The translations under genes were made by a program, and so were the position numbers. The notes under the pieces were generated by a model, which was not told the origin of the DNA, did not search any database, and saw nothing but the letters and a program-made list of their open reading frames with translations. Positions 1-63,850 of a stretch of DNA of 64,000 bases are shown here, in pieces; within the stretch, counting starts at the first letter, position 1, and the number at the start of each line of letters is the position of its first letter. This DNA comes from Escherichia coli (GTDB taxonomy: Bacteria; Pseudomonadota; Gammaproteobacteria; Enterobacterales; Enterobacteriaceae), in NCBI RefSeq assembly GCF_030384885.1, contig NZ_CP128613.1; one strand, 5' to 3'.

Positions 1-112
1 GTGCGCCAGATAAGACACAACAGCGTCGCATCAGGCATCTCGCACAACCGCCGGATGCGGCGTGAATGCCTTATCCGGCGGCCCACAAGTCGGCATCAGG
101 CATTGATGCCCC
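1..112. repeat. REP/BIME-like cluster of palindromic units
   Basis: Direct read: units such as gccggatgcggcgtgaatgccttatccggc match the enterobacterial REP consensus; the 110-aa ORF called across it is an artefact. Confidence 0.7.
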
Positions 113-9131: not shown

Positions 9132-9307
9132 GTTTTGCATTTATCAGTCGTCTGAATTTTAACCCTCTGGCGACTTTACAGTACCTTACGCTATACTAGC
9201 CACTGAAAATGCCGGTTCACTTTCTTCGAATCGGCTTTCAATGTGTATTTCACACAAATTAATCAACTTCCCCTTCCGAGGATCTGGCCTGAAAGGTCGG
9301 ATAAGAT

Positions 9308-13777: not shown

Positions 13778-13966
13778 TTCTCCACCTCGTCTCTGTGAGC
13801 GGTGTTAACTTGTTGTTTTACTTATACCCTATCGTTAAAGAATGCGCCAACTGTGATAGTGTCATCATTTTCAAAGCGTTAAATTGTGGCATTCTTCACT
13901 GTTCTAAAAGTAAGAGGTTTATTCTCCCTTTTCTTTCGAATTCCCGATGATAAAAGGATGTCCCTG

Positions 13967-21810: not shown

Positions 21811-22449
21811 ATGCCCGGGCGCTTTGAACTAAAACCAACCCTGGAGAAAGTCTGGCACGCGCCGGACAATTTTCGCTTCATGGACCCGCTACCGCCGATG
21901 CATCGTCGGGGGATCATTATTGCCGCTATTGTATTGGTGGTCGGATTTCTACTCCCGTCTGATGATACGCCAAACGCGCCGGTGGTGACGCGTGAAGCAC
22001 AGTTAGATATTCAGTCGCAATCACAACCGCCGACAGAAGAACAGCTGCGGGCGCAATTAGTCACACCACAAAATGATCCTGATCAGGTGGCTCCGGTCGC
22101 TCCAGAACCGATACAGGAAGGCCAACCGGAAGAGCAGCCGCAAACCTCGCAAGTGCAACCTTTCCAGCCAGATAGCGGAATTGACAATCAATGGCGCTCT
22201 TACCGTGTCGAACCCGGTAAAACGATGGCGCAGCTGTTCCGCGACCACGGACTGCCCGCTACCGATGTCTATGCAATGGCGCAGGTAGAAGGCGCGGGTA
22301 AGCCGCTGAGTAATTTGCAAAACGGGCAGATGGTGAAAATCCGCCAGAATGCCAGCGGCGTGGTGACGGGCTTAACCATTGATACGGGGAATAATCAACA
22401 GGTCCTGTTTACCCGCCAGCCGGATGGGAGTTTTATTCGTGCGCGGTAG
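21811..22449 (+). CDS. ytfB: Cell-division protein YtfB (OapA-domain)
   Basis: Start set at [13 protein letters not shown] (212 aa); TM segment then Pro/Gln-rich linker; 3' end overlaps the convergent TetR gene. Confidence 0.88.
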
Positions 22450-23080
22450 ATGAAGGGTCAACCAAAAGCCAGCTAAGGATTGTCTCTTTGATGACCTTAC
22501 GCCTGGCTTCCAGTGCCTGCGGTGAAACCATACTGATGTGATAAACCAGGCCAAGCGTATGCTGGTTGATCAAATAATATCCTCCAAGAGCAGCAATATT
22601 AATATTCACCTGCAACGGGTCGATATCTGGCTTAAAAATATTGCGCCGTTTGCCTTCAGCTAATAATGACTCCATTAACTGTAAGTGTGCGTGGTTAATT
22701 TCTAAAAGGCGCTGTGATTTTGCATAATGCACCCCTTTACTCTGGTTTTCACTATGCACAATTTTTAAAAACCAGGGGTTAGCAATGTAATAATCCCAGG
22801 TGAAATCGATAATTTTCTCAATGGCTTTTTGTGGCGGAAGACCTGAGAAATCAAGGGATTTTTCTTTTTGCCGAATATCATTCCAGGTATATTCCAGCAC
22901 TTCGATAAATAAATTTTCTTTATTACCAAAGTGATGATAAACCGTCTGTTTACTGCACTCCGCGGCCTTGACGATATTATCGACTCTGGCCCCTTCGTAA
23001 CCATATTCGGCAAATTCATTAACCGCACATAACAACAGCTTTTCCTTCAGGCTTTGTACGTTGCTGGTATCAAGATACAT
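22433..23080 (-). CDS. TetR/AcrR-family transcriptional regulator
   Basis: N-terminal HTH ([28 protein letters not shown]) typical of TetR; ATG at 23080 preferred over the GTG at 23140 used by the ORF track; divergent from the downstream operon. Confidence 0.8.
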
Positions 23081-23202
23081 TCCGCTTCCCCACGTCTTCT
23101 TCGTGATGACTATCTTAACCCGATTTGTTAGAAGCTCCACTAAAATGGCTAAAAACTCGCAATTTCATCGGGTTATCAAATGCTCTGTGATCATTATCGC
23201 AT

Positions 23203-23224
23203 ATCAACCAACTAGATGGTTGAT
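23203..23224. promoter_or_regulatory. Candidate TetR operator (inverted repeat) in divergent promoter region
   Basis: atcaacca-actaga-tggttgat, 8-bp perfect arms, between the TetR gene and the SDR gene; inference. Confidence 0.35.
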
Positions 23225-23291
23225 CTTTCTTGCCACACATTGCAAGCTAATCGTCACTTAAGGAAATAATATTCAAAAAGAGGGTTATTGT

Positions 23292-24083
23292 ATGAAGTCA
23301 ACACGTCCTGTTGCTGTCATCACTGGAGCCGCACGTGGTATTGGAAAGGGCTGTGCACTGGAACTTGCGCGTGGCGGATTTAATCTGCTGATTAATGATC
23401 GTCCGGATGCCGACAGCGTAGAAAAATTACATGCCACACAACAAGAATGTCTGGCGGAAGGCGTGGAAGTGATTTGCTTCCCTGCTGATGTTGGCGATCT
23501 CTCCCTTCATGAAGAGATGCTCGACGCGGCGCAAAACCAGTGGGGACGTCTGGACTGTCTACTCAACAACGCAGGCATTTCAGTGAAAAAACGCGGTGAC
23601 CTCCTCGACCTCGAACCAGACAGCTTCGACCAAAACATTGCCATTAACACCCGTGCGCCGTTCTTCCTTGCTCAGGCATTCAGTAAGCGATTACTGGCAC
23701 AGCCGAAACCGGAAGCAGAACTGCCGCACCGCTCGATTATTTTTGTCAGTTCCATAAACGCCATCATGCTGGCGATGAATCGCGGCGAATATACCATTGC
23801 CAAAACTGCCGTCTCCGCCGCAGCTCGTCTGTTTGCCGCTCGCCTTTGCAATGAACAAATTGGCGTTTATGAAGTGCGCCCTGGCCTAATCAAAACCGAT
23901 ATGACCATTCCGGCAACGGCTTATTACGACGAACTGATTGCTAAGGGGTTAGTGCCGTGGGGACGTTGGGGTTATCCGGCTGATATTGCCTCAACGGTCC
24001 GCGCGATGGCGGAAGGCAAACTGATTTACACCTGTGGTCAGGCGGTCGCCATCGACGGCGGCTTAAGTATGCCGCGCTTCTGA
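23292..24083 (+). CDS. Short-chain dehydrogenase/reductase (SDR)
   Basis: TGAARGIG cofactor motif, NNAG, and Ser...Y-x3-K catalytic motif (YTIAK) read directly. Confidence 0.85.
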   Translation: MKSTRPVAVITGAARGIGKGCALELARGGFNLLINDRPDADSVEKLHATQQECLAEGVEVICFPADVGDLSLHEEMLDAAQNQWGRLDCLLNNAGISVKKRGDLLDLEPDSFDQNIAINTRAPFFLAQAFSKRLLAQPKPEAELPHRSIIFVSSINAIMLAMNRGEYTIAKTAVSAAARLFAARLCNEQIGVYEVRPGLIKTDMTIPATAYYDELIAKGLVPWGRWGYPADIASTVRAMAEGKLIYTCGQAVAIDGGLSMPRF

Positions 24084-24092
24084 GGCTGAATC

Positions 24093-24935
24093 ATGAGAGA
24101 TCTGTTACAACGCCCGGATTTATTCAGTATCAATACTGCGACACTGGGCTATAAAACGCCGCTACCTGCCATTATTGATGCCTGCGCCGCACGCGGTATT
24201 GGCGCGATTGCCCCCTGGCGCAGGGAGTTACAGGGTGAAGATCTCCAGCAAATCGCCCGCCAGCTTGCTGCCAGTAACATGAGCGTTTCCGGTTTGTGTC
24301 GTAGCACCTATTACACCGCGCCGACGCTGACGGAACGCAAACTGGCGATTGATGATAACCGCCGGGCGCTGGACGACGCCGCTGTACTGAACGCCGCCTG
24401 TTATATGCAGGTGGTTGGCGGTCTGCCAATGGGAACAAAAGATCTGTACGAAGCGCGGGAACAAGTGAAACAAGGGATTCGCCAGTTGCTGCCACATTCG
24501 AAAGATGTCGGCGTGCCAATTGCGCTGGAGCCGCTGCACCCGATGACAGCTGCCGATCGCTCTTGCCTGTGCACGTTACGTCAGGCGCTGGACTGGTGTG
24601 ATGAACTCGATCCCGATGGGGAGTTTGGCCTCGGCGTGGCGGTGGATGTTTATCACGTCTGGTGGGACCCGGATCTCGCCAGTCAGATCCTGCGTGCCGG
24701 AAAACGCATCCTCGCGTTTCATGTTTCCGACTGGCTGGTGCCAACCACCGATTTAGTCAATGACCGGGGAATGCCGGGAGATGGCGTAATCAATATTCCG
24801 TCTATTCGTCGCCAGGTAGAAAATGCCGGATTTAACGGTGCTGTGGAACTGGAAATTTTCTCACCGTACTGGTGGCAGCAAGATATTAACAGCACGTTGG
24901 ATATTAGCGTCGATCGCATCGCGCATTATTGCTAA
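24093..24935 (+). CDS. Sugar-phosphate isomerase/epimerase-like (xylose-isomerase-type TIM barrel) protein
   Basis: 280-aa ORF; family assignment by overall resemblance only (…AFHVSDW…), no database check. Confidence 0.55.
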   Translation: MRDLLQRPDLFSINTATLGYKTPLPAIIDACAARGIGAIAPWRRELQGEDLQQIARQLAASNMSVSGLCRSTYYTAPTLTERKLAIDDNRRALDDAAVLNAACYMQVVGGLPMGTKDLYEAREQVKQGIRQLLPHSKDVGVPIALEPLHPMTAADRSCLCTLRQALDWCDELDPDGEFGLGVAVDVYHVWWDPDLASQILRAGKRILAFHVSDWLVPTTDLVNDRGMPGDGVINIPSIRRQVENAGFNGAVELEIFSPYWWQQDINSTLDISVDRIAHYC

Positions 24936-24938
24936 GGA

Positions 24939-25721
24939 ATGATCATGAGTGACCAACCCGTTCTGTTCAGCAGAGCGGCGGCTTCCTGCCGCCTGACATT
25001 GAACCGTGAAGATAAATGTCATGCTATTAATGAAGAAATGATCGAATCTCTCGACCATTATTTAAATGAAATTGAAAACGACACCACATTACGATTAGTC
25101 GAATTAACGGCAACCGGCGATAAATTCTTTTGTGCAGGCGGCGATATTAAATCGTGGTCAGCCTATTCGCCATTAGATATGGGCAGAAAATGGATTAAAC
25201 GCGGCAATGACGTTTTTAATCGCCTGCGCAATTTACCTCAATTAACGGTTGCGAATCTCAACGGTCATACCATCGGCGGTGGTATTGAACTTGCCTTGTG
25301 CTGCGATATTCGTATTGCTCGCCCCGGCGCGAAATTCTCTAATCCGGAAGTAATGCTCGGCATGGTGCCTGGCTGGATGGGCATTGAACGCGTGCTTAAT
25401 CAGGTCGGTCCGGTGGTCGGTCGCCAGATGCTGATGCTGGGTAAACGCCTGACGGCGCAGGAAGCTCAGGCAGCGAATTTAATTGATGAAGTGGTAGAAA
25501 AAGAACAGGTGGAAAGCTGGATGGCGAATCAGTTAGCGCAGCTGGAAAAATGCGGTCCGGTGGCGCTCGCACATATCAAGCAACTGATTCTGGCTCTAGA
25601 AAATAAACATGCTGATTACCCGCACCAGTTACTGGCTGGATTAATGTCCGCCACTCAGGATTGCCAGCAGGCGACGCGCGCATTTGCCGAAAAAAGTAGC
25701 GTGAGCTTCCAAAATCAATAA
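24939..25721 (+). CDS. Enoyl-CoA hydratase/isomerase (crotonase family)
   Basis: Crotonase signatures FFCAGGDIKSW and GHTIGGGIELALCCDIRIA. Confidence 0.85.
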   Translation: MIMSDQPVLFSRAAASCRLTLNREDKCHAINEEMIESLDHYLNEIENDTTLRLVELTATGDKFFCAGGDIKSWSAYSPLDMGRKWIKRGNDVFNRLRNLPQLTVANLNGHTIGGGIELALCCDIRIARPGAKFSNPEVMLGMVPGWMGIERVLNQVGPVVGRQMLMLGKRLTAQEAQAANLIDEVVEKEQVESWMANQLAQLEKCGPVALAHIKQLILALENKHADYPHQLLAGLMSATQDCQQATRAFAEKSSVSFQNQ

Positions 25722-25730
25722 GGAAATTGT

Positions 25731-27272
25731 ATGCGTAAGATAACAACCGCCGAGACACTGGCGGCGCAAATTCAGGACGGTGCAACCATTGCCATTAGCG
25801 GTAATGGCGGCGGCATGGTGGAAGCGGACCATATTCTGGCTGCTATTGAAGCGCGTTTCCTGCAAACCGGACACCCGCGCGATCTGACATTAATCCACTC
25901 GCTGGGCATTGGCGATCGCGACTGCAAAGGCACTAACCGCTTCGCTCATGCAGATATGCTCAAACGCATCATTGCCGGACATTTTACCTGGTCGCCCAAG
26001 ATGCAGGATCTGGTGAAAAACAATGCTATTGAAGCCTACTGCTTCCCTGGTGGCGTAATTCAGGCACTGCTGCGGGAGATCGGTGCCGGACGTCCAGGGC
26101 TTTTTACCCACGTTGGACTGGGATCGTTTGTTGATCCGCGCAACGGCGGCGGTAAGTCGAACGCCAGCACCACTGAGGATCTGGTAGAACTGATTGAAAT
26201 CGACGGTGAAACCAAACTTCGTTATCGCCCTTTCAAAGTGGATTACGCGATTTTGCGTGGCACTTATGCCGATCCTCGAGGCAACGTCAGCCTTGAAGAA
26301 GAGGCGATTGATATGGATAGCTATTCCATGGCGCTGGCAGCACACAACAGCGGTGGCAAAGTGTTCGTACAGGTGCGCGATGTGCTGGAAGCTGGTGCCA
26401 TTGAACCACGCCGGGTCAAATTACCGGGCATTCTGGTTGATGGCATCGTTGAACACCGCGAACAACCGCAAACATATCTTGGCGGTTACGACCTGACCAT
26501 CAGCGGTCAGCACCGCCGTTTAAGTTCTAACGACGCTATTGAACTGGTTACTCATCCGGTGCGCCGCCTGATTGCCCGTCGGGCAGCACGCGAACTGGTG
26601 GCTGGCGCTTCAACCAACTTTGGCTTTGGCATTCCCGGCGGCATTCCTGGGGTTGCACTGCGCGAAGGCGTGCCTTATCAAAGTTTATGGCTGAGCGTCG
26701 AGCAAGGCGTGCATAACGGTATGATGCTGGATGATGCTCTGTTCGGCTGCGCCCGTAACGCCGATGCCATTATTCCATCACTCGATCAATTCGAATTCTA
26801 CAGTGGCGGAGGGATCGATATCACCTTCCTCGGCATGGGAGAGATGGATCAGCATGGTAACGTCAACGTCTCCCATCTCAATGGCAATCTCATTGGCCCC
26901 GGCGGATTTCTCGAAATTGCGCAAAACGCCCGTAAAGTGGTGTTCTGTGGCACGTTCGACGCCAAAGGTAGCAAGATTGATGTAACACCAGATGGCTTGC
27001 ATATCGCCCAGTCAGGTCAAATCCCTAAACTGGTTACCCAAGTGGAAAAAATCACTTTTAGCGCCGCCTACGCACAGCAAAGCGGTCAGGAAGTGTTGTA
27101 TATCACTGAACGTGCAGTATTCCAATTAACAGCAGAAGGCGTTGAATTAATTGAAATCGCACCAGGTGTGGAGATTGAGCGCGACATTCTGCCATATATG
27201 GCTTTCCGTCCAATTATCAATCAGCCACGCCTGATGGAAAGTAGCCTGTTTACGCCGATGGAGGATGCATGA
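25731..27272 (+). CDS. Family-I CoA-transferase (YdiF/acetate CoA-transferase-like, fused A/B subunits)
   Basis: 513-aa ORF; long stretches resemble E. coli YdiF as I recall it (…VGLGSFVDPRNGGGK…); 3' end overlaps the next gene (ATGA). Confidence 0.8.
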   Translation: MRKITTAETLAAQIQDGATIAISGNGGGMVEADHILAAIEARFLQTGHPRDLTLIHSLGIGDRDCKGTNRFAHADMLKRIIAGHFTWSPKMQDLVKNNAIEAYCFPGGVIQALLREIGAGRPGLFTHVGLGSFVDPRNGGGKSNASTTEDLVELIEIDGETKLRYRPFKVDYAILRGTYADPRGNVSLEEEAIDMDSYSMALAAHNSGGKVFVQVRDVLEAGAIEPRRVKLPGILVDGIVEHREQPQTYLGGYDLTISGQHRRLSSNDAIELVTHPVRRLIARRAARELVAGASTNFGFGIPGGIPGVALREGVPYQSLWLSVEQGVHNGMMLDDALFGCARNADAIIPSLDQFEFYSGGGIDITFLGMGEMDQHGNVNVSHLNGNLIGPGGFLEIAQNARKVVFCGTFDAKGSKIDVTPDGLHIAQSGQIPKLVTQVEKITFSAAYAQQSGQEVLYITERAVFQLTAEGVELIEIAPGVEIERDILPYMAFRPIINQPRLMESSLFTPMEDA

Positions 27273-29350
27273 GTCAGCTTGATGACACCCTCCTTGATGC
27301 GCTGACGCATGTCACTTTCCCGAAGGGTTTTGCACAGGCAGAACCCGCATGGGTTGTCACGGTAGACGGTGTTGATTACCCACTCTGGCAAACAGATGCC
27401 CTGGTAGTCGGCAGTGGTGCAGCCGGGCTGCGTGCAGCTGTGGAACTTAAACGCCGCCAGCAAAATGTGTTGATCGCCACTGCCGGGTTATATATGGGGA
27501 CGTCGGCATGTTCTGGTTCCGATAAACAGACACTGTTTACCGCCGCTACCGCGGGCAATGGCGACAACTTCACCAAACTGGCAGAGGCACTGGCGAGCGG
27601 TGGAGCGATGGATCACGACACCGCTTATGTCGAAGCGGTAGGTTCTCTGCACACTCTTGGCGGGTTGCAATATCTTGGTCTGGAATTACCGGAAGATCGC
27701 TATGGCGCGATTCTTCGTTATCAAACCGACCATGACGAAGCCGGGCGTGCAACCTCGTGTGGGCCGCGTACCTCAAGGTTAATGGTGAAAGTGCTGTTGG
27801 AAGAAGTGCAGCGCCTCGCCATTCCAGTGTTGACCAGTGCAACAGTGATTAAACTGCTGCATCAGCGTGACGAAAACGGCGAAGACTGCGTGGCGGGGGC
27901 AATCCTCGCGACCGGTCATCGCGCCCATAACCCATGGGGGCTGGCAATTGTGACTGCGCCCAATGTGGTGCTGGCAACAGGAGGGCCTGGCGAGCTTTAT
28001 CGAGACAGTGTGTACCCACATAAATGCTTCGGCTCGCTGGGGCTGGCGCTGGAAGAAGGTCTGACGCTAACCAATCTGACCGAAAGCCAGTTTGGTATTG
28101 GCACGCCACGCAACACCTTTCCGTGGAATTTGTCCGGCACCTATGTACAGGTGATCCCATATATCTATTCCGTAGATGCTGAGGGCAACGAGTATAACTT
28201 CCTCACGGATTACTATCGAACTACCCAGGAACTGGCTTCAAACATCTTCCGTAAAGGCTATCAGTGGCCGTTTCACGCCACACGAGTGATGGATTTTGGC
28301 TCCAGCTTGTTAGATATGGCAGTAGCGCAAGAGCAGCAATCAGGGCGTCAGGTATTTATGGATTTCAATCGCAATCCTGAACCTGTGCCGGGTGACATGC
28401 CGTTCTCATTAGATCGACTGGACGACGACGTTCGCGCGTATCTGGAAAATAACGACGCTCTGGCACCATCGCCCATCGAACGACTGCAACGAATGAATCC
28501 GCTGTCTATCTCGCTGTATAAGATGCACGGTTACGATCTCACCACGCAGCCATTGCAGTTTGCCATGAATAATCAGCATATGAATGGCGGCATTGAAGTG
28601 GATATCTGGGGGCAAACCTCCCTGCCCGGCTGTTTCGCCGTGGGGGAAGTTGCTGGCACACACGGCGTTACCCGACCTGGCGGTGCGGCGCTGAATGCCG
28701 GACAGGTATTTGCCGTGCGACTGGCACGTTTTATTGGTTGCACACAAAAGCGGTCCGTTGAGGATGATATCGCGCAGCTGGTAGCCTCACCTCTGCATAC
28801 AATCAGAGAAGTTATCGCTCAGGCACTGGCAAACGAGAACGGAATGACGCTGGCAACGGTGAAAGAAAAAATCCAGGCGCGAATGTCTGATTACGCGGGA
28901 TTTATTTGCCATGCTGATAAAGTTCGTCACGCCGCCCGTGACGCCATGCTGTTAAATGAATTTGCGCAGCAACATGGTCTAACTATCAACCACGCCGGTG
29001 AAATTGCCGAGCTATTTATGTGGCGGCATATGGCATTAACATCCGCTGCGGTGTTAAGCCAGCTATCACATTATATTGATGCTGGCGGTGGTAGTCGTGG
29101 AGCACGGATGATTATTGATCCACAAGGAGAATATCTTCCACAAACTCGTCGCGGCGCAATCGAAGATTGGCGTTTTCGCTCTGAACAAGCTGAAGATAAA
29201 AATCACAGACTAACTCTCTCCTTTTCACAAGGTTTATTTATTAATGAAATTAAGTTCTTGAGAAACTTACCGCATATTAAAGGTATTTACTTTGAGAAGA
29301 ATTGGCCTGATTTTCTTAACGGAACAATTTATCAGACACGGCATGAATAA
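27269..29350 (+). CDS. FAD-dependent oxidoreductase (fumarate reductase/succinate dehydrogenase/L-aspartate oxidase-like flavoprotein)
   Basis: Dinucleotide-binding motif VVGSGAAGLRAA, HMNGG and GEVAGTHGVTRPGGAALN motifs of the FAD_binding_2 family; 693 aa with an AT-rich C-terminal tail. Confidence 0.75.
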   Translation: MSQLDDTLLDALTHVTFPKGFAQAEPAWVVTVDGVDYPLWQTDALVVGSGAAGLRAAVELKRRQQNVLIATAGLYMGTSACSGSDKQTLFTAATAGNGDNFTKLAEALASGGAMDHDTAYVEAVGSLHTLGGLQYLGLELPEDRYGAILRYQTDHDEAGRATSCGPRTSRLMVKVLLEEVQRLAIPVLTSATVIKLLHQRDENGEDCVAGAILATGHRAHNPWGLAIVTAPNVVLATGGPGELYRDSVYPHKCFGSLGLALEEGLTLTNLTESQFGIGTPRNTFPWNLSGTYVQVIPYIYSVDAEGNEYNFLTDYYRTTQELASNIFRKGYQWPFHATRVMDFGSSLLDMAVAQEQQSGRQVFMDFNRNPEPVPGDMPFSLDRLDDDVRAYLENNDALAPSPIERLQRMNPLSISLYKMHGYDLTTQPLQFAMNNQHMNGGIEVDIWGQTSLPGCFAVGEVAGTHGVTRPGGAALNAGQVFAVRLARFIGCTQKRSVEDDIAQLVASPLHTIREVIAQALANENGMTLATVKEKIQARMSDYAGFICHADKVRHAARDAMLLNEFAQQHGLTINHAGEIAELFMWRHMALTSAAVLSQLSHYIDAGGGSRGARMIIDPQGEYLPQTRRGAIEDWRFRSEQAEDKNHRLTLSFSQGLFINEIKFLRNLPHIKGIYFEKNWPDFLNGTIYQTRHE

Positions 29351-29370
29351 TATTGCAAAGGTTAATCACT

Positions 29371-29847
29371 ATGCGAAATATAATCAGATCTATTAATTCA
29401 TTGCTTTCCACGTTGAACATTACCATTTTGGCAATTATTGTGATGTGCGTTACATGGCAAGTAGTAGCACGATTTATCTTTAAAAGCCCCAGCATTTTTA
29501 CAGATGAACTTAGTCGTTTACTATTTATTTGTCTTGGACTTTTTGGTGGTGCTTATACTGCCGGACAAAACCGACATCTGGCCATTGATCTTCTGCCAAT
29601 GATGCTAAAAGGAAAATCCCGACGTTATTTATTCTTATGTATTCAGGCCATTGTTATTCTTTTTGCCTCTATCATTATGGTTTATGGTGGCGGGTTATTA
29701 ACACTGGACACATTTGATTCAGGGCAAACTTCTCCGGCTTTAGGCTGGCAGATGGGATATATTTACATGAGCATTCCAATAAGTGGCATCCTTATTATTA
29801 TATACACCATAGATACAGTTTTAACCGAACTTAAACAACCACTCTAA
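29371..29847 (+). CDS. TRAP transporter small permease (DctQ-like)
   Basis: About 158 aa with 4 predicted TM helices; ATG at 29371 with upstream aaagg preferred over the TTG at 29353; directly upstream of DctM. Confidence 0.75.
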   Translation: MRNIIRSINSLLSTLNITILAIIVMCVTWQVVARFIFKSPSIFTDELSRLLFICLGLFGGAYTAGQNRHLAIDLLPMMLKGKSRRYLFLCIQAIVILFASIIMVYGGGLLTLDTFDSGQTSPALGWQMGYIYMSIPISGILIIIYTIDTVLTELKQPL

Positions 29848-29869
29848 AATAAGTAGGGATGGAGAAAAC

Positions 29870-31171
29870 ATGGATTACTGGTTACCGATCATTGTGTTAT
29901 TTGGTTCTTTCTTTTTTATGTTGGCATTAGGTGTTCCTATTGTCTATGCTATTGGTTTATCAACACTGGCATCAATTACTACACAACTCGATTTCAACTC
30001 AGCATTGAGTGTGGTTTCACAAAAGTTAGCCTCCGGGTTAGATAGTTTTACGTTGTTGGCAATCCCATTTTTTATCTTGTCTGGCAACATTATGAATCAT
30101 GGAGGAATAGCGCGACGATTAATCAACTTTGCCCGTATTCTCGGCGGTCGTCTGCCAGGCTCACTTGCTCACTGTAATATTCTTGCCAATATGCTGTTCG
30201 GGGCAATTTCTGGTTCAGCTGTTGCTTCGGCGGCTGCGATGGGCGGCGTCATGCATCCACAGCAGGTTAAAGAGGGTTACGACCCGGCATTCAGTACCGC
30301 TGTTAACGTTGCCTCTGCACCGACAGGTTTACTTATTCCACCCAGTAATACGTTAATTGTCTTTTCACTGGTCAGTGGTGGTACTTCTATTGCCGCACTG
30401 TTCCTGGCAGGATATGTCCCGGGAATTTTATTGGGCCTGGCGCTGATGACTGTGGCTGGTATTATCGCGGTACGCCGGGGTTATCCAAAACCAGAACGTC
30501 CGACTTTGCGCCAGGCTGGAGTGGCAATATGGATGGCGATCCCCAGTATTTTCCTGATTGTATTAATTATGGGTGGTGTACTAAGCGGTATTTTTACCCC
30601 GACAGAAGCATCTGCAATTGCGGTAATTTATACCCTTTTCCTTGCACTGGTTCTTTATCGTGAAATATCAGTTAAAGATTTACCTAAGATATTTCTGGAG
30701 TCCGTCATTACCACTGCAATTGTCTTGTTGTTAATTGGTTCTTCAATGGGAATGTCATGGGCAATGTCAAACGCTGACGTTCCCTTCCTGATTCTCGATT
30801 TGCTTAACACTATTTCTGATAATCCAATAATAATCCTGCTTATTATCAATATTATTCTGTTGATTATCGGCACATTTATGGATATGACACCGGCAGTACT
30901 GATTTTTACGCCGATATTTTTACCCGTTGTCACCGAACTGGGCATGGACCCGATTCACTTTGGTATTGTCATGGTACTGAACATGTGTATCGGTATTTGT
31001 ACTCCGCCTGTAGGCAGTGTGTTATTTGTCGGTTGTAGTGTATCTAAATTACCGATTAATAAAATTATCAAACCTATGCTGCCCTTCTATGCCGTGATGG
31101 TATTGGTGCTGGCTATGGTGACCTATATTCCGCAAATCAGTATGGCATTGCCAAGAGCACTGGGCTACTGA
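29870..31171 (+). CDS. TRAP transporter large permease (DctM-like)
   Basis: 433-aa polytopic membrane protein; size and hydrophobicity pattern typical of DctM. Confidence 0.85.
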   Translation: MDYWLPIIVLFGSFFFMLALGVPIVYAIGLSTLASITTQLDFNSALSVVSQKLASGLDSFTLLAIPFFILSGNIMNHGGIARRLINFARILGGRLPGSLAHCNILANMLFGAISGSAVASAAAMGGVMHPQQVKEGYDPAFSTAVNVASAPTGLLIPPSNTLIVFSLVSGGTSIAALFLAGYVPGILLGLALMTVAGIIAVRRGYPKPERPTLRQAGVAIWMAIPSIFLIVLIMGGVLSGIFTPTEASAIAVIYTLFLALVLYREISVKDLPKIFLESVITTAIVLLLIGSSMGMSWAMSNADVPFLILDLLNTISDNPIIILLIINIILLIIGTFMDMTPAVLIFTPIFLPVVTELGMDPIHFGIVMVLNMCIGICTPPVGSVLFVGCSVSKLPINKIIKPMLPFYAVMVLVLAMVTYIPQISMALPRALGY

Positions 31172-31223
31172 TGCGCATTCACTGGCGGCTCCTGCCGCCA
31201 TATTTATTAGAAAAGGAACATCT

Positions 31224-32195
31224 ATGAAAATAAAAGTATCCGCTGGCATTATCGGTGCTGTTCTTATGTTATCTGCAGGCCAGTCCTGGGCAGTAACATT
31301 AAAACTTAGCCATAATCAGGATAAATCTCATCCTGTTCATAAAGCGATGGAGTTCTTTGCGAAAAAGAGCAAAGAGTACTCTAACGGTGATATTACTATT
31401 CGTATTTATCCAAATGGAACATTGGGTACTCAACGAGAAACAATGGAGCTGATTCGTTCTGGTGCTATTCCGCTGGTAAAAACCAATGCGGCGGAGATGG
31501 AAGCCTTCGAGAGTTCGTATAAAATATTTAGCCTGCCTTATTTGTTCCGCGATCGTGATCATTATTATCAGGTCATGCAAGGCGATATCGGAAGGAAAAT
31601 CCTCGACTCAACGAAAAACAAAGGTTATTTCGGTCTGACTTTCTATGATGGAGGCGCCCGCAGCTTCTACGGCAATAAACCGGTGCTGAAACCAGACGAT
31701 CTCAAAGGAATGAAAGTTCGTGTCCAGCCAAGCCCAGGGGCAGTTGAGATGATCAAAGTCATGGGAGGTAACCCAACACCGCTGGATTATGGAGAGTTGT
31801 ACACAGCATTGCAGCAAGGTGTGGTTGATATGGCGGAAAACAGTGTGATGGCGCTGACCACCATGCGCCACGGTGAAGTAGCAAAATCCTTCAGCCTTGA
31901 CGAACACACTATGGTTCCTGATGTGGTTCTAATGAGCAATGCTTCGTTTGATAAGCTTAGCCCGGAAAATCAGGCAGCTATATTAAAAGCAGCTAAAGAA
32001 TCAATGAGCTACATGAAAGACTTGTGGAGCGAGGAAGAGAAAAAAGAATTCGCTAAACTGGATCAAATGGGCGTGAAAGTCTACAAGGTTGATAAAGCAC
32101 CGTTTATCGAGAAAGTGCAGCCGATGTACGCAGCCTTTGCTAAGGAAAACCCTGCTCTCGCCCCAATGCTAACTGATATTCAGGCGACTAAGTAA
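31224..32195 (+). CDS. TRAP transporter substrate-binding protein (DctP-like), periplasmic
   Basis: 323 aa, signal peptide MKIKVSAGIIGAVLMLSAGQSWA; DctP-size soluble protein adjacent to DctQM. Confidence 0.8.
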   Translation: MKIKVSAGIIGAVLMLSAGQSWAVTLKLSHNQDKSHPVHKAMEFFAKKSKEYSNGDITIRIYPNGTLGTQRETMELIRSGAIPLVKTNAAEMEAFESSYKIFSLPYLFRDRDHYYQVMQGDIGRKILDSTKNKGYFGLTFYDGGARSFYGNKPVLKPDDLKGMKVRVQPSPGAVEMIKVMGGNPTPLDYGELYTALQQGVVDMAENSVMALTTMRHGEVAKSFSLDEHTMVPDVVLMSNASFDKLSPENQAAILKAAKESMSYMKDLWSEEEKKEFAKLDQMGVKVYKVDKAPFIEKVQPMYAAFAKENPALAPMLTDIQATK

Positions 32196-33350: not shown

Positions 33351-33764
<414 letters not shown>

Positions 33765-34073
33765 TTATTCAGCCTCCTGTCTGGGTCAGCCGAATCCCGG
33801 GGAGGCAAGGAACGTGTTAAAGGTCGGCTGAAAAATGACGCGTTATAGTACTGACATACCCCGCTAAACTCAAGGCCAGCCGACAAATAAATCTCATCTT
33901 TCACCAAATCGTACTAACACGCTGATTTGAAGTTCATCACACTTCATCATGGTGTTTTTTTGAACAACTGCATCAGAAATGGTCACCATCCACTTCTTTA
34001 TCATTGATTAAAATTAAATCAGAAGATCACCACAAGAGGAGAGCACACAAAGTCAGCCGTCGAGGAGGTATCT

Positions 34074-59712: not shown

Positions 59713-60663
59713 TCAGCCTGCGATAGCACCAACAACCTGTAATACTTCATCACGCGCCTGTTCTGGTTTTTCACTGTCAAGCCAGTGAACCCCTTCCCAA
59801 CCACGCAGCCAGGTTATCTGCCGCTTCGCCAACTGTCTCGTGGCGCAAACACCTCGATAAACCATTTCATCGTATGAGATTTCGCCTTCAAGGTAAGACC
59901 ACATCTGGCGATAACCCACGCAACGAATGGAAGGCAAGTCCGTATGCAAATCTCCTCGGGCAAAAAGCGCCCGGACTTCTGCTTCAAAACCTGAAGCCAA
60001 CATCTGATGAAAACGCTGCTCAATTCGTTGATGGAGCAGTTCACGGCTCGCCGGGGCGATGGCGAACTGATGCACCTGATACGGTAGAGCGTCTCCTGAC
60101 GTTTGCGTCAGTTCCGTTAAAGTTTTACCCGAAATGAAAAAAACTTCCAGTGCCCGGGAAAGCCTTTGTGGATCATTTGGATGAATCCTTGCTGCCGCAA
60201 CCGGATCGATCTCCTGAAGTTGACGATGCAATGACTCCCAACCTTGCTCTGCCGCCTGTTGCTCAATTCTGGCCCGCACTTCGGGGTCTGCCGACGGTAG
60301 CGGCGACAACCCTTCCAGCAATGCCTTGAAATACAACATCGTACCGCCCACTAATAGTGGGATCCGCCCCGCCGCGGTGATATCAGCCATTTCCGCCAGC
60401 GCATCGCGGCGAAAATCAGCGGCCGAATAAGCCTGCGACGGATCGCGAATATCCAGCAATCGGTGCGGCGCGGCGAGTAACTCTTCAGCGTTCGGCTTCG
60501 CCGTCCCGATATCCATCCCTTTGTAAATAAGGGCAGAATCAACGCTTATCAACTCTACTGGTAAAATTTTACGCAGCTCAATGGCTAACGCCGTTTTACC
60601 GGAGGCCGTCGGCCCCATCAAAAAAATCGCCTTAGGCAGGCTCGCCTTACTGATATCACTCAT
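59713..60663 (-). CDS. miaA: tRNA dimethylallyltransferase MiaA
   Basis: 316 aa with P-loop GPTASGKT; overlaps the mutL 3' end. Confidence 0.95.
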
Positions 60664-62503
60664 CTTTCAGGGCTTTTATCGCCGGATGTAAATCAACAGA
60701 TTGTAACAGACCACCCGGCGGCGTTTTCACAAGTTGCGGACATAACCGTTCCACGTCCGCCAGCAGGGTGATGGCCTGTGCCATTGACCACTGCGCATGT
60801 TCGCTCATCAGATTTCGTGCAATCCACTGCGCAATATTGCCAGGTTCGAATACGGACTGCTTCGCCAGGTAGCCTATCAGTTCAGGAATCAAGATTTGTA
60901 AATTTTGTTGGCGTAAGGGTAAAGGCACGGCCCTGATGGTCACATACTGTGCATCGGACTGGAAATCAATACCCAATTCCGCCAGGGCAGACTGCGCTTT
61001 TTCTAATGCCGATTTTTCTTCGCCAGAAACTTTTAGCCGCAACGGAATAAGCAACGGCTGAGCGCAAACTGGCGTTTCACCCGGCGTCAACTGCGCCTGA
61101 CGCAGCCAACGTTCTGCCACTGGCAGGGCTAAAAGTGAAATGTTGCCGTCGCGCTCCAGCAACGCACAGTCGGAATGGACGATAGTCAGTACTCGACCAA
61201 AACTCTGACTGTTCGCCGCAAGCGCTGGCTCCTGCGGTTCAGGTGCTTTTGGTTTTTGCATCGGCGCAGGCGTTTGCAAAAGCTGGCGATACACTTCACC
61301 TTGCTGTTTCTGGTAGCCTGGCTGCGCATTCGGCCAGGAAGCTGCTGGACGACCACCAGAGGCGGGCGCAGGAGAGTAGCGGGGGGCTACCGGTTCACGA
61401 ACTGCCGGTTCAGCAAAATGATTACGCCCGGCGGCCACGCGGTTCTCCGGAATGGTGCGCGGTGCAGGTTGAGGTTCATCGTCCAGTGGCAGCGGCGTTT
61501 CCAGCTGTTGTTGTAGCACACTCAGCACGCCCTGATAGATAAAGTCGTGCACCAGACGCGACTGATGGAAACGCACTTCGTGTTTGGCGGGGTGCACGTT
61601 GACGTCCACTTGATGTGGGTCGATCTCCAGATACAACACAAATGCCGGTTGCTGATCGGCCCCCAGTTTGTCTTCACAGGCCTGACGGATCGCATGATTG
61701 ATCAGGCGATCGCGCATCATGCGACCATTCACGTAGCAATACTGAATTTCTGCCAGTGCGGGCGTGGTGTGATTCGGATCTGCCACCCAGCCGCGCAGCG
61801 TGAGATCGCCGTGTTGCCATTCAATCGCCAGCGCTTGTTCGAGAAAAGCGGTGCCGCAAATCGCGCCTAAGCGCCGTTCTTTTTGCCCGCCTTCCGGCAC
61901 TGCGCGGTACTGGCGAACTATTTTGCCGTTATGCGACAGATTGATAGTGACGTCGAAACGCGCCAGCGCAATGCGGCGGATGATTTCATCAATATGGTTA
62001 AATTCGGTTTTCTCGGTACGCAGGAATTTGCGCCGCGCCGGGGTATTGTAGAACAGATCCAGCACTTCCAGCGTCGTTCCCACCGGATGCGCCGCCGGTT
62101 TAACCGTCACGTCCATATCGCGCCCTTCGGCATACGCTTGCCATGCCTCCTGCTGCTCTGCGGTGCGCGAAGTGAGCGTCAGACGGGAAACTGAACTGAT
62201 ACTCGCCAGCGCCTCACCGCGGAACCCCAGGCTGATAATAGCTTCGAGATCGTCCAGAGAGGCGATTTTACTGGTAGCATGACGCGCCAGCGCCAGCGCC
62301 AGTTCATCTTTTTTGATACCGCAGCCGTTATCACGAATGCGGATAAGTTTCGCCCCACCGCGTTCGATATCAATATCAATACGCGTCGCACCCGCATCGA
62401 GGCTGTTTTCCACCAGTTCTTTGACTACCGACGCAGGTCGCTCGACCACCTCACCTGCGGCAATCTGGTTCGCCAGTTGTGGCGGTAAGACCTGAATTGG
62501 CAT
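60656..62503 (-). CDS. mutL: DNA mismatch repair protein MutL
   Basis: Start set at [23 protein letters not shown] (615 aa); GHKL ATPase motifs. Confidence 0.95.
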
Positions 62504-62512
62504 CAATCATCC

Positions 62513-63850
62513 TTAGTTTGGCAGCGTGCGATCTGGCGTCGTCACCGTGCTGGCCGTTTGTGCCGTTGCCCCCTGCGGCGCAGATTGCATCGGATGCGCA
62601 AGGAAATAATTGCGCAGGCCTTTGTAAATGGCTTCTGCCAGCTGTTGTTGGTAATCGTCGCTCGCCAGCAAACGTTCTTCGCTGTTGTTACTGATAAAAC
62701 CGGTTTCGACCAGTACTGATGGGATATCCGGCGAACGCAGAACGCCAAGGCTGGCGTGTTCTGGTCGACGTTTATGAATTTCGCCGATGCGTTGCAACTG
62801 ACTGATCATACTGGTCGCCACATCATACCCTACCCGCTGGGAATGACCGAACTGTAAATCCAGCACCGCCTGGCTTAAATACGGGTCAGACTGACTGTTC
62901 GCCAGCACATCGCCCGCTCCGCCCAGCAGCTCCGACTGTTTCTCGTGCTGCTCCAGCCAGCTGGCCATTTCGCTGTTGGCGCGACGGTTAGAGAGCACCC
63001 ATACGGAAGCGCCAGTCGCACTGCGGTTCGGTGCGGCATCAGCGTGAATCGACACGAGGAAATTAGCGTTTTGCTTACGTGCCACATCGCTGCGCCCCAT
63101 CACCGAGATAAAGTAATCCCCGTCACGGGTTAAAACGCCCTTAAACATTGGATCGTCATTGAGCAAAGTACGCAATTTACGTGCGATGGCGATGGTGACA
63201 TTTTTCTCCCGCGTACCACCGGGGCCGATAGCGCCAGGATCCTGACCGCCGTGTCCGGCATCAATAGCGATGATAATTTTATCGCCTGTGTTAGCCGTCG
63301 CGCGCGCTGCCGGACGCGTTACCGTATTACTGCTGATAATACCCGTAGTGCGGTTACTTTCGGTTTTAAACGGATTGCGCGCTGGTTCGCTGACGCGCGG
63401 TGCGACAACCGCAGGCGTTTCAACGCGTTTCGCAACCACAGGCGGCGGAGGAGGCGGTGGTGGAACATCGGCGTTAATCGTAAAGACGACAGTGTAATTG
63501 CTACCATTCTGCCGCTTCACCGCTTCGGTTTTACCGTTTTCGGTGAGATCGACCACTAGCCGTAGCGTTTGTGCATCTTTAGGCGTTCCAGAGCGAATCG
63601 CCTTCACCAGATTATTACCGCTGAACAACAACGGTAGCCCCTGAATCACGCCCGTTTGTTTGATATCGAGCGCCACGGTGCGTTTGTTTTGATGGCTAAA
63701 CGCGTAATCAGGATCGCCAGTAAAACTCAATGTTATTCGCGCCTGTTGATTACCGTTAGAAACCTGAATATCAGAGAGCGTAGCGGCGCCAGCCTGCGCG
63801 CACAGCAGCAGCAGCGTCGCTACCAACCAATTTCTGATGCGATACATCAT
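62513..63850 (-). CDS. amiB: N-acetylmuramoyl-L-alanine amidase AmiB
   Basis: Start set at [22 protein letters not shown] (445 aa); eight-proline linker; amidase_3 domain. Confidence 0.93.

Follow-up and report, generated by a model that had tools for sequence, protein, structure and literature searches.

The amiB locus and its run of proline codons

A 64 kb stretch of Escherichia coli DNA, hereafter termed the window, aligns to positions 2977999-3041998 of E. coli 2013C-4282 (NZ_CP027579.1) across all 64 kb with 7 mismatches and no gaps. The gene annotation around amiB was read from this record and its coordinates were converted to those of the window (Table 1), which revealed the gene row tsaE-amiB-mutL-miaA-hfq-hflXKC, in which tsaE to hfq make up the conserved neighbourhood of amiB.

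Table 1. Features of the window, with the evidence on which each assignment is based
Feature	Position	Strand	Basis
naRNA4	4-80	-	Rfam, above gathering score
STnc450 sRNA	9189-9246	+	Rfam, above gathering score
ES239 sRNA	13844-13966	-	Rfam, above gathering score
Cluster of unnamed genes	22433-32195		located between ytfB and rplI
RpsF leader	33744-33828	-	Rfam, above gathering score
mutL	60656..62503	-	directly downstream of amiB, same orientation; NZ_CP027579.1 annotation
amiB, N-acetylmuramoyl-L-alanine amidase AmiB (445 aa + stop)	62513..63850	-	NCBIfam NF007751; amiB annotation in NZ_CP027579.1
Amidase_3 catalytic domain, residues ~192-418	62597..63277	-	PF01520 residues 194-413, E 2.7e-48; PDB 8c0j_A
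Inter-domain linker, residues 128-191, tract at its N-terminal end	63278..63469	-	without secondary structure, pLDDT 34-55
Eight proline codons in a row, AmiB residues 130-137	63440..63463	-	sequence and translation
AMIN domain (septal peptidoglycan-targeting), residues ~24-127	63470..63781	-	PF11741 residues 27-112; AlphaFold strands E24-E127, pLDDT 85-94

The four RNA features of the window, namely ES239, the RpsF leader, STnc450, and naRNA4, are all expected in E. coli. The cluster of unnamed genes comprises a TetR-family regulator, a 3-ketoacyl-ACP reductase, a sugar-phosphate isomerase, an enoyl-CoA hydratase, a CoA transferase, an FAD oxidoreductase, and a three-gene TRAP transporter, and it has the appearance of an accessory metabolic island that varies between strains.

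The assignment of the minus-strand gene to AmiB, which had been made in an earlier sequence-only reading of the window, is borne out by three agreeing sources. The NCBIfam equivalog matches residues 1-445 of the 445-aa product with a score of 975.5 bits, for which the curated cut-off is 532, both the N-terminal AMIN domain and the C-terminal Amidase_3 domain that make up the architecture of AmiB were detected with Pfam, and NZ_CP027579.1 carries the amiB annotation at this place. On the plus strand, the letters of the tract are aggcggcggaggaggcggtggtgg, and their reverse complement, CCA CCA CCG CCT CCT CCG CCG CCT, lies in frame with the minus-strand ORF, as its translation confirms. The same reading had located the eight-proline tract exactly and had quoted the correct DNA apart from the "a" at 63440, so that only 23 nt were given, which is a trivial omission. 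At least three consecutive prolines define a polyproline stall motif, and the eight CCN codons of AmiB go well beyond this number. Judged by how often CCN occurs in the six frames, chance alone would yield 1.6e-5 eight-codon runs per window and about 2e-5 across a proteome as large as that of E. coli; within the 64 kb, no frame contains another run that exceeds four proline codons. A plus-strand ORF (63270-63497, poly-Gly) that extends over the tract was dismissed as a mechanical antisense ORF, and no annotation exists at that place.

The polyproline run in the window is the eight-proline run already known from the AmiB of K-12, which Martens et al. [quoted passage not shown] The gene, the residues (130-137), and the peptide are the same, while the two sequences differ by synonymous changes only, GTT CCA ... 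CCT in the window versus GTG CCG ... CCC in K-12. Since ribosome profiling of wild-type E. coli has also shown a sharp footprint peak where amiB encodes the eight prolines (PMC4402525), the earlier description of the tract as a known and minor feature is correct, and a long proline run in AmiB is by itself of low interest. What is added here is small, and consists of a P5-P11 allelic series in E. coli together with the family-wide conservation of a tract of unstable length.

It is established that efficient synthesis through PPP motifs needs EF-P (Ude et al. 2013 and Doerfel et al. 2013, both in Science, refs 22-23 of the ribosome-profiling study PMC4402525). In the literature searched, this study (PMC4402525) was the only one retrieved that bears on the matter, and no direct EF-P test on AmiB was found. 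Ribosomes would be expected to pause in vivo at the tract in the window as well, given that the pause has been published for K-12 amiB with the same peptide, and EF-P would presumably relieve it, as general knowledge of the factor combined with the published pause suggests. AmiB was reportedly used in vitro by Doerfel et al. in 2013.

Position in the linker and conservation across species

An AlphaFold2 model of AmiB was built from a 51-sequence alignment (mean pLDDT 78.7), in which the last AMIN strand occupies residues 118-127, followed by coil over residues 128-191 and by the catalytic domain from residue 192. The coil, with a pLDDT of 34-55, stands between two domains with values above 85, as is characteristic of an unstructured linker. 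In this model, the tract starts three residues past the last AMIN strand and opens a linker of ~64 residues, with a confidence of only ~55 pLDDT across the tract. The match to PDB 8c0j_A extends over residues 190-422 of AmiB (E 5e-143), and this is also the only part covered by solved structures. In Pseudomonas aeruginosa AmiB, an equivalent linker of ~40 residues was found to be flexible and not buildable in the cryo-EM map (PMC10214136). The model layout, the coverage of the solved structures, and the P. aeruginosa linker together place the proline tract as the opening element of the linker between the domains, and this position fits the enrichment of E. coli polyproline motifs just after domain ends and in linkers that was reported by Qi et al. 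(2018, PMC5811046).

The linker is also the part of the protein in which length changes accumulate. In an alignment of 78 species, the gapped columns in residues 1-123 and 190-420 numbered zero, and the indels of amiB were confined to the tract, the rest of the linker, and the C-terminal tail, which indicates that the linker tolerates changes in length. Its total length ranges from 54 to 72 residues across species, and a compensation of tract length by the linker remainder was not found (rho +0.22, p 0.056), implying that the exact spacing is not tightly constrained. Per 100 residues, 51 distinct gap patterns were counted in the rest of the linker versus 82 in the tract, and linker tolerance may, to judge from the aligned sequences, be as important for the tract indels as repeat-driven mutability. 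Large in-frame deletions within the linker occur too, as revealed by a set of E. coli / Shigella AmiB proteins of 412-420 aa (P0007-P0017), in which P8 is kept while 25-31 residues are missing further down, with the junctions …VVAPR|ATANTGDK or …SEPAR|AT…. Another repeat-type indel was observed in Escherichia whittamii, whose linker contains a 10-residue tandem duplication, VVAKRVE(A/T)PP, right after the tract.

For the comparison between species, one genome per species (GTDB) was used, and the 80 closest AmiB loci, all from Enterobacteriaceae, were selected. The tract occupies the same site, FTINAD-x-Pn-VVAKR, in each of the 80 species representatives. The longest run comprises 3 prolines in one species, 4 in two, 5 in 12, 6 in 15, 7 in 14, 8 in 30, 9 in five, and 10 in one, so that at least five uninterrupted prolines are present in 77 of the 80 species, with a mode of 8 and a range of 3-10. 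Variation is seen within single genera, as exemplified by Citrobacter (5-8), Raoultella (7-10), Klebsiella (5-8), and Escherichia (5-8). On a tree built from the two folded AmiB domains, the 78 tips require a minimum of 39 length changes, compared with 43 when the tips are shuffled, which means that tract length is almost devoid of phylogenetic signal at such a depth. Two assemblies labelled Chryseobacterium sp. 18061 and Collinsella (a MAG) carry an Enterobacteriaceae-type amiB that is 80% and 97% identical to the query, respectively, which points to contamination or mislabelling.

The tract codons across species consist of 273 CCG, 133 CCA, 123 CCT, and 13 CCC. Such mixed third positions indicate that proline identity has been kept by selection on the amino acid, and that a single codon has not recently expanded to form the tract. 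Relative to the other proline codons of amiB, CCC is depleted in the tract (2.4% vs 9.6%) and CCA is enriched (24.5% vs 11.6%), with P-values that are indicative only, because the species are non-independent samples. This usage matches the genome-wide proline-pair bias, which has been ascribed to CCC/U-C being avoided as prone to frameshifts (PMC8129111). In the AmiB/AmiC family at large, represented by 50%-identity clusters, the longest linker proline run is 0-2 in 110 of 123 representatives and reaches at least four in only three, and the long run is accordingly a trait of Enterobacteriaceae AmiB, which the amidase in general does not need, given that its distant relatives mostly lack it. 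The retention of polyproline in 80/80 Enterobacteriaceae species despite its translational cost argues for a structural role in the AmiB linker.

Length alleles of the tract in E. coli

With a query of 140 nt that has the tract at its centre, 5,425 of 5,426 complete E. coli genomes were matched. One genome was without a match, and two matches fell on records classed as plasmids. Allele counts were derived from the identity bands of allele-specific queries, and the P8 total was obtained by subtraction, amounting to about 4,500 genomes, or about 83%; the six-codon alleles account for about 850 genomes, or about 16% (Table 2). In the 17 representative loci that were fetched, the length differences are all located inside the tract.

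Table 2. Alleles of the amiB proline tract, written on the coding strand
Allele	Type	Codons or derivation	Genomes
P8	window	GTT CCA CCA CCG CCT CCT CCG CCG CCT	1/5,426 (2013C-4282)
P8	K-12	GTG CCG CCA CCG CCT CCT CCG CCG CCC
P8	O157	GCG CCG CCA CCG CCT CCT CCG CCG CCT
P8	R32_14_1F	GCG CCG CCA CCG CCT CCA CCG CCG CCA
P11	EC42405	R32 type with an exact 9-nt tandem duplication of CCGCCACCG	1
P7	O145	O157 type less one copy of CGC-CGC	30
P7	AR_0369	K-12 type less one copy of GCC-GCC	10
P7	18SZHZ655Rt	third codon lost	at least 1
P6		CCG CCA CCG CCT CCG CCA	128 at >=99% to the CS6L allele
PPSPPP		P6 allele in which a CCG has become TCG	692 at >=99% to the Nissle allele
P5	E2348/69	AR_0369 type less CCTCCT	19

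The sequence-only reading had regarded the repetitive DNA as a potential site of slipped-strand length variation, which could be checked by comparing amiB alleles of E. coli. The length was indeed found not to be invariant, since tracts of 5, 6, 7, 8, and 11 codons are present. P7 was found in at least 41 genomes, where it goes back to three independent deletions. The PPSPPP allele was identified in Nissle 1917 and A32, and the ST131 strain EC958 is 99.2% identical to it. Alleles of nine or ten prolines were not detected in E. coli with the P11 query, for which the five records at 90-95% identity all span 138 nt (P8), while very divergent backgrounds may escape this query. Comparison at the codon level revealed at least six independent indel events and one interrupting substitution.

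Each indel breakpoint coincides with a direct repeat of 2-9 nt, from which slippage or microhomology-mediated events would be the probable source of the tract indels. The suggestion of slipped-strand mutation thus holds on the evolutionary scale, at which breakpoints fall at short CCN/GCC direct repeats, but it does not extend to a hypermutable or phase-variable site, because the repeat is imperfect, the changes are in frame, and the alleles are clonal. The in-frame codon indels in the tract are genuine alleles rather than assembly errors, which is relevant to allele-based typing schemes.

The window carries a rare linker haplotype, in which GTT-CCA marks the beginning of the tract: over the 140 nt at 63382-63521, only 2013C-4282 is at least 99% identical among the 5,426 genomes, and the next best match listed reaches 97.8%.

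A probable polyproline spacer and the competing explanations

The tract is in all likelihood a selected polyproline spacer that opens the flexible, indel-tolerant linker of the periplasmic cell-separation amidase AmiB, with EF-P-relieved pausing as its side effect or cost and with the occasional in-frame gain or loss of codons being tolerated. It would most probably act as a short, stiff, and extended segment that holds the AMIN and catalytic domains apart, and the polyproline-II conformation that such a role presupposes is expected from the general behaviour of oligoprolines (PMC12856214); at 3.1 Å per residue, P8 would span about 2.5 nm. Ribosomes pause on the tract because Pro-Pro peptide bonds form slowly. 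The mixed CCN codons provide the direct repeats of 2-9 nt through which replication slippage or microhomology-mediated events could add or remove whole codons, and the resulting length alleles survive and are inherited clonally because the linker tolerates the change. Selection keeps the residues proline while the length varies, from P5 to P11 in E. coli and between longest runs of 3 and 10 in Enterobacteriaceae.

The pause itself might be assumed to be the selected trait, in which case the tract would serve as a programmed translational throttle, whose EF-P-dependent delay sets the dosage of AmiB, allows time for Sec targeting or the handling of the AMIN domain, or, by way of polarity, alters the expression of mutL-miaA-hfq downstream, with tract length tuning its strength. 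This explanation could account for the strong footprint peak that exists even in the wild type (PMC4402525), for the conservation in all 80 Enterobacteriaceae species, and for mutL, miaA, and hfq following amiB directly in the same orientation; in addition, Qi et al. (PMC5811046) interpreted the enrichment of polyproline after domains as folding pauses, and the tract begins 3 residues past AMIN. However, three prolines already produce a strong stall, whereas most species have 5-9, and a length that drifts freely between close species without phylogenetic signal (at least 39 changes vs 43 after shuffling) is unexpected for a tuned regulator. AmiB, moreover, folds in the periplasm after Sec-dependent export, which leaves little for a co-translational folding pause in the cytoplasm to work on. 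Regulatory data on the tract were not found in the literature searched, and a regulatory role of the pause is not favoured given the free length drift and the periplasmic folding; we consider the throttle unlikely. The motifs of CadC and EnvZ (PMC6023141) resemble the AmiB tract in their consecutive prolines, ribosome stalls, and EF-P dependence, but a functional or regulatory consequence was tested for them, whereas none is documented for AmiB, whose freely drifting tract length speaks against a finely tuned motif. A polyproline-II helix might, on the other hand, be an active ligand rather than a passive spacer, to which a partner at the division site would bind as SH3 or WW domains do. Helices of this kind are common recognition elements (review, PMC12856214), and both the uninterrupted proline identity and the FTINAD-x-Pn-VVAKR flanks are strongly conserved in the 80 species. 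Such docking is nevertheless highly improbable, as no partner is known, lengths of 5-11 and natural interruptions by S, T, L, A, and Q are tolerated, and EnvC exerts its activating effect on the catalytic domain, while in P. aeruginosa it is the AMIN domain and not the linker that was proposed to contact EnvC (PMC10214136).

The polymorphism of 5-11 codons in E. coli, in which the same first CCG codon was lost recurrently on two haplotypes (as one copy of CGC-CGC or of GCC-GCC in two of the P7 alleles), could also recall a phase-variable contingency locus, where a CCN repeat slips often and generates AmiB variants within a population. The contingency loci of Haemophilus and Neisseria share the repeat-associated gain and loss of units with the AmiB tract, but they rely on long perfect repeats and frequent shifts of frame or promoter spacing, in place of an imperfect repeat with rare in-frame changes and clone-stable alleles. 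The longest perfect period-3 stretch in the window's tract is 8 nt, Tandem Repeats Finder reported no tandem repeat over 63300-63600 at its lowest score (30), and identical proline codons follow one another in runs of 1-4 at most across 78 species. All changes are of -9, -6, -3, or +9 nt and leave every allele in frame, so that an on/off switch is not possible. The alleles are, furthermore, stable within clones: one P7 allele is common to 30 genomes, of which the 21 named ones all belong to serogroup O145; P5 is common to 19 genomes, including five E2348/69 / O127:H6 assemblies; several Nissle 1917 assemblies have one allele; and the sampled K-12 derivatives MG1655, C600, ER1709, and KMS2005 all carry the 138-nt P8 form. 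The three defining features of a phase-variable locus, namely a long perfect repeat, expression switching, and length differences among very close relatives, are thus absent, and the contingency explanation is almost certainly wrong.

For the preferred spacer, the (Glu-Pro)n(Lys-Pro)n segment of TonB offers a comparison among proline-rich periplasmic spacers. AmiB would resemble TonB in having a stiff and extended proline-rich segment between modules of a periplasmic protein, and the translation of proline pairs is a known EF-P issue. The TonB segment consists of alternating X-Pro over about 30 residues and spans the periplasm, whereas that of AmiB is short and made of proline alone, and the disordered linker that it opens is otherwise rich in Ser/Thr/Ala/Arg.

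The native P5-P11 series and its interrupted forms, embedded in a near-identical protein, could be used to scale stall strength or EF-P dependence against run length. It seems very unlikely that the natural alleles (P5, P6, PPSPPP, P7, P8, and P11) are non-neutral, in the sense that length or interruption sets the rate of AmiB synthesis through EF-P-dependent pausing or how far the catalytic domain can extend from septal peptidoglycan. If they were, PPSPPP in Nissle 1917, EC958, and A32, P7 in O145:H28, and P5 in EPEC E2348/69 would be expected to play a part in how these lineages differ in the separation of their cells, in the turnover of their envelope, or in their dependence on EF-P.
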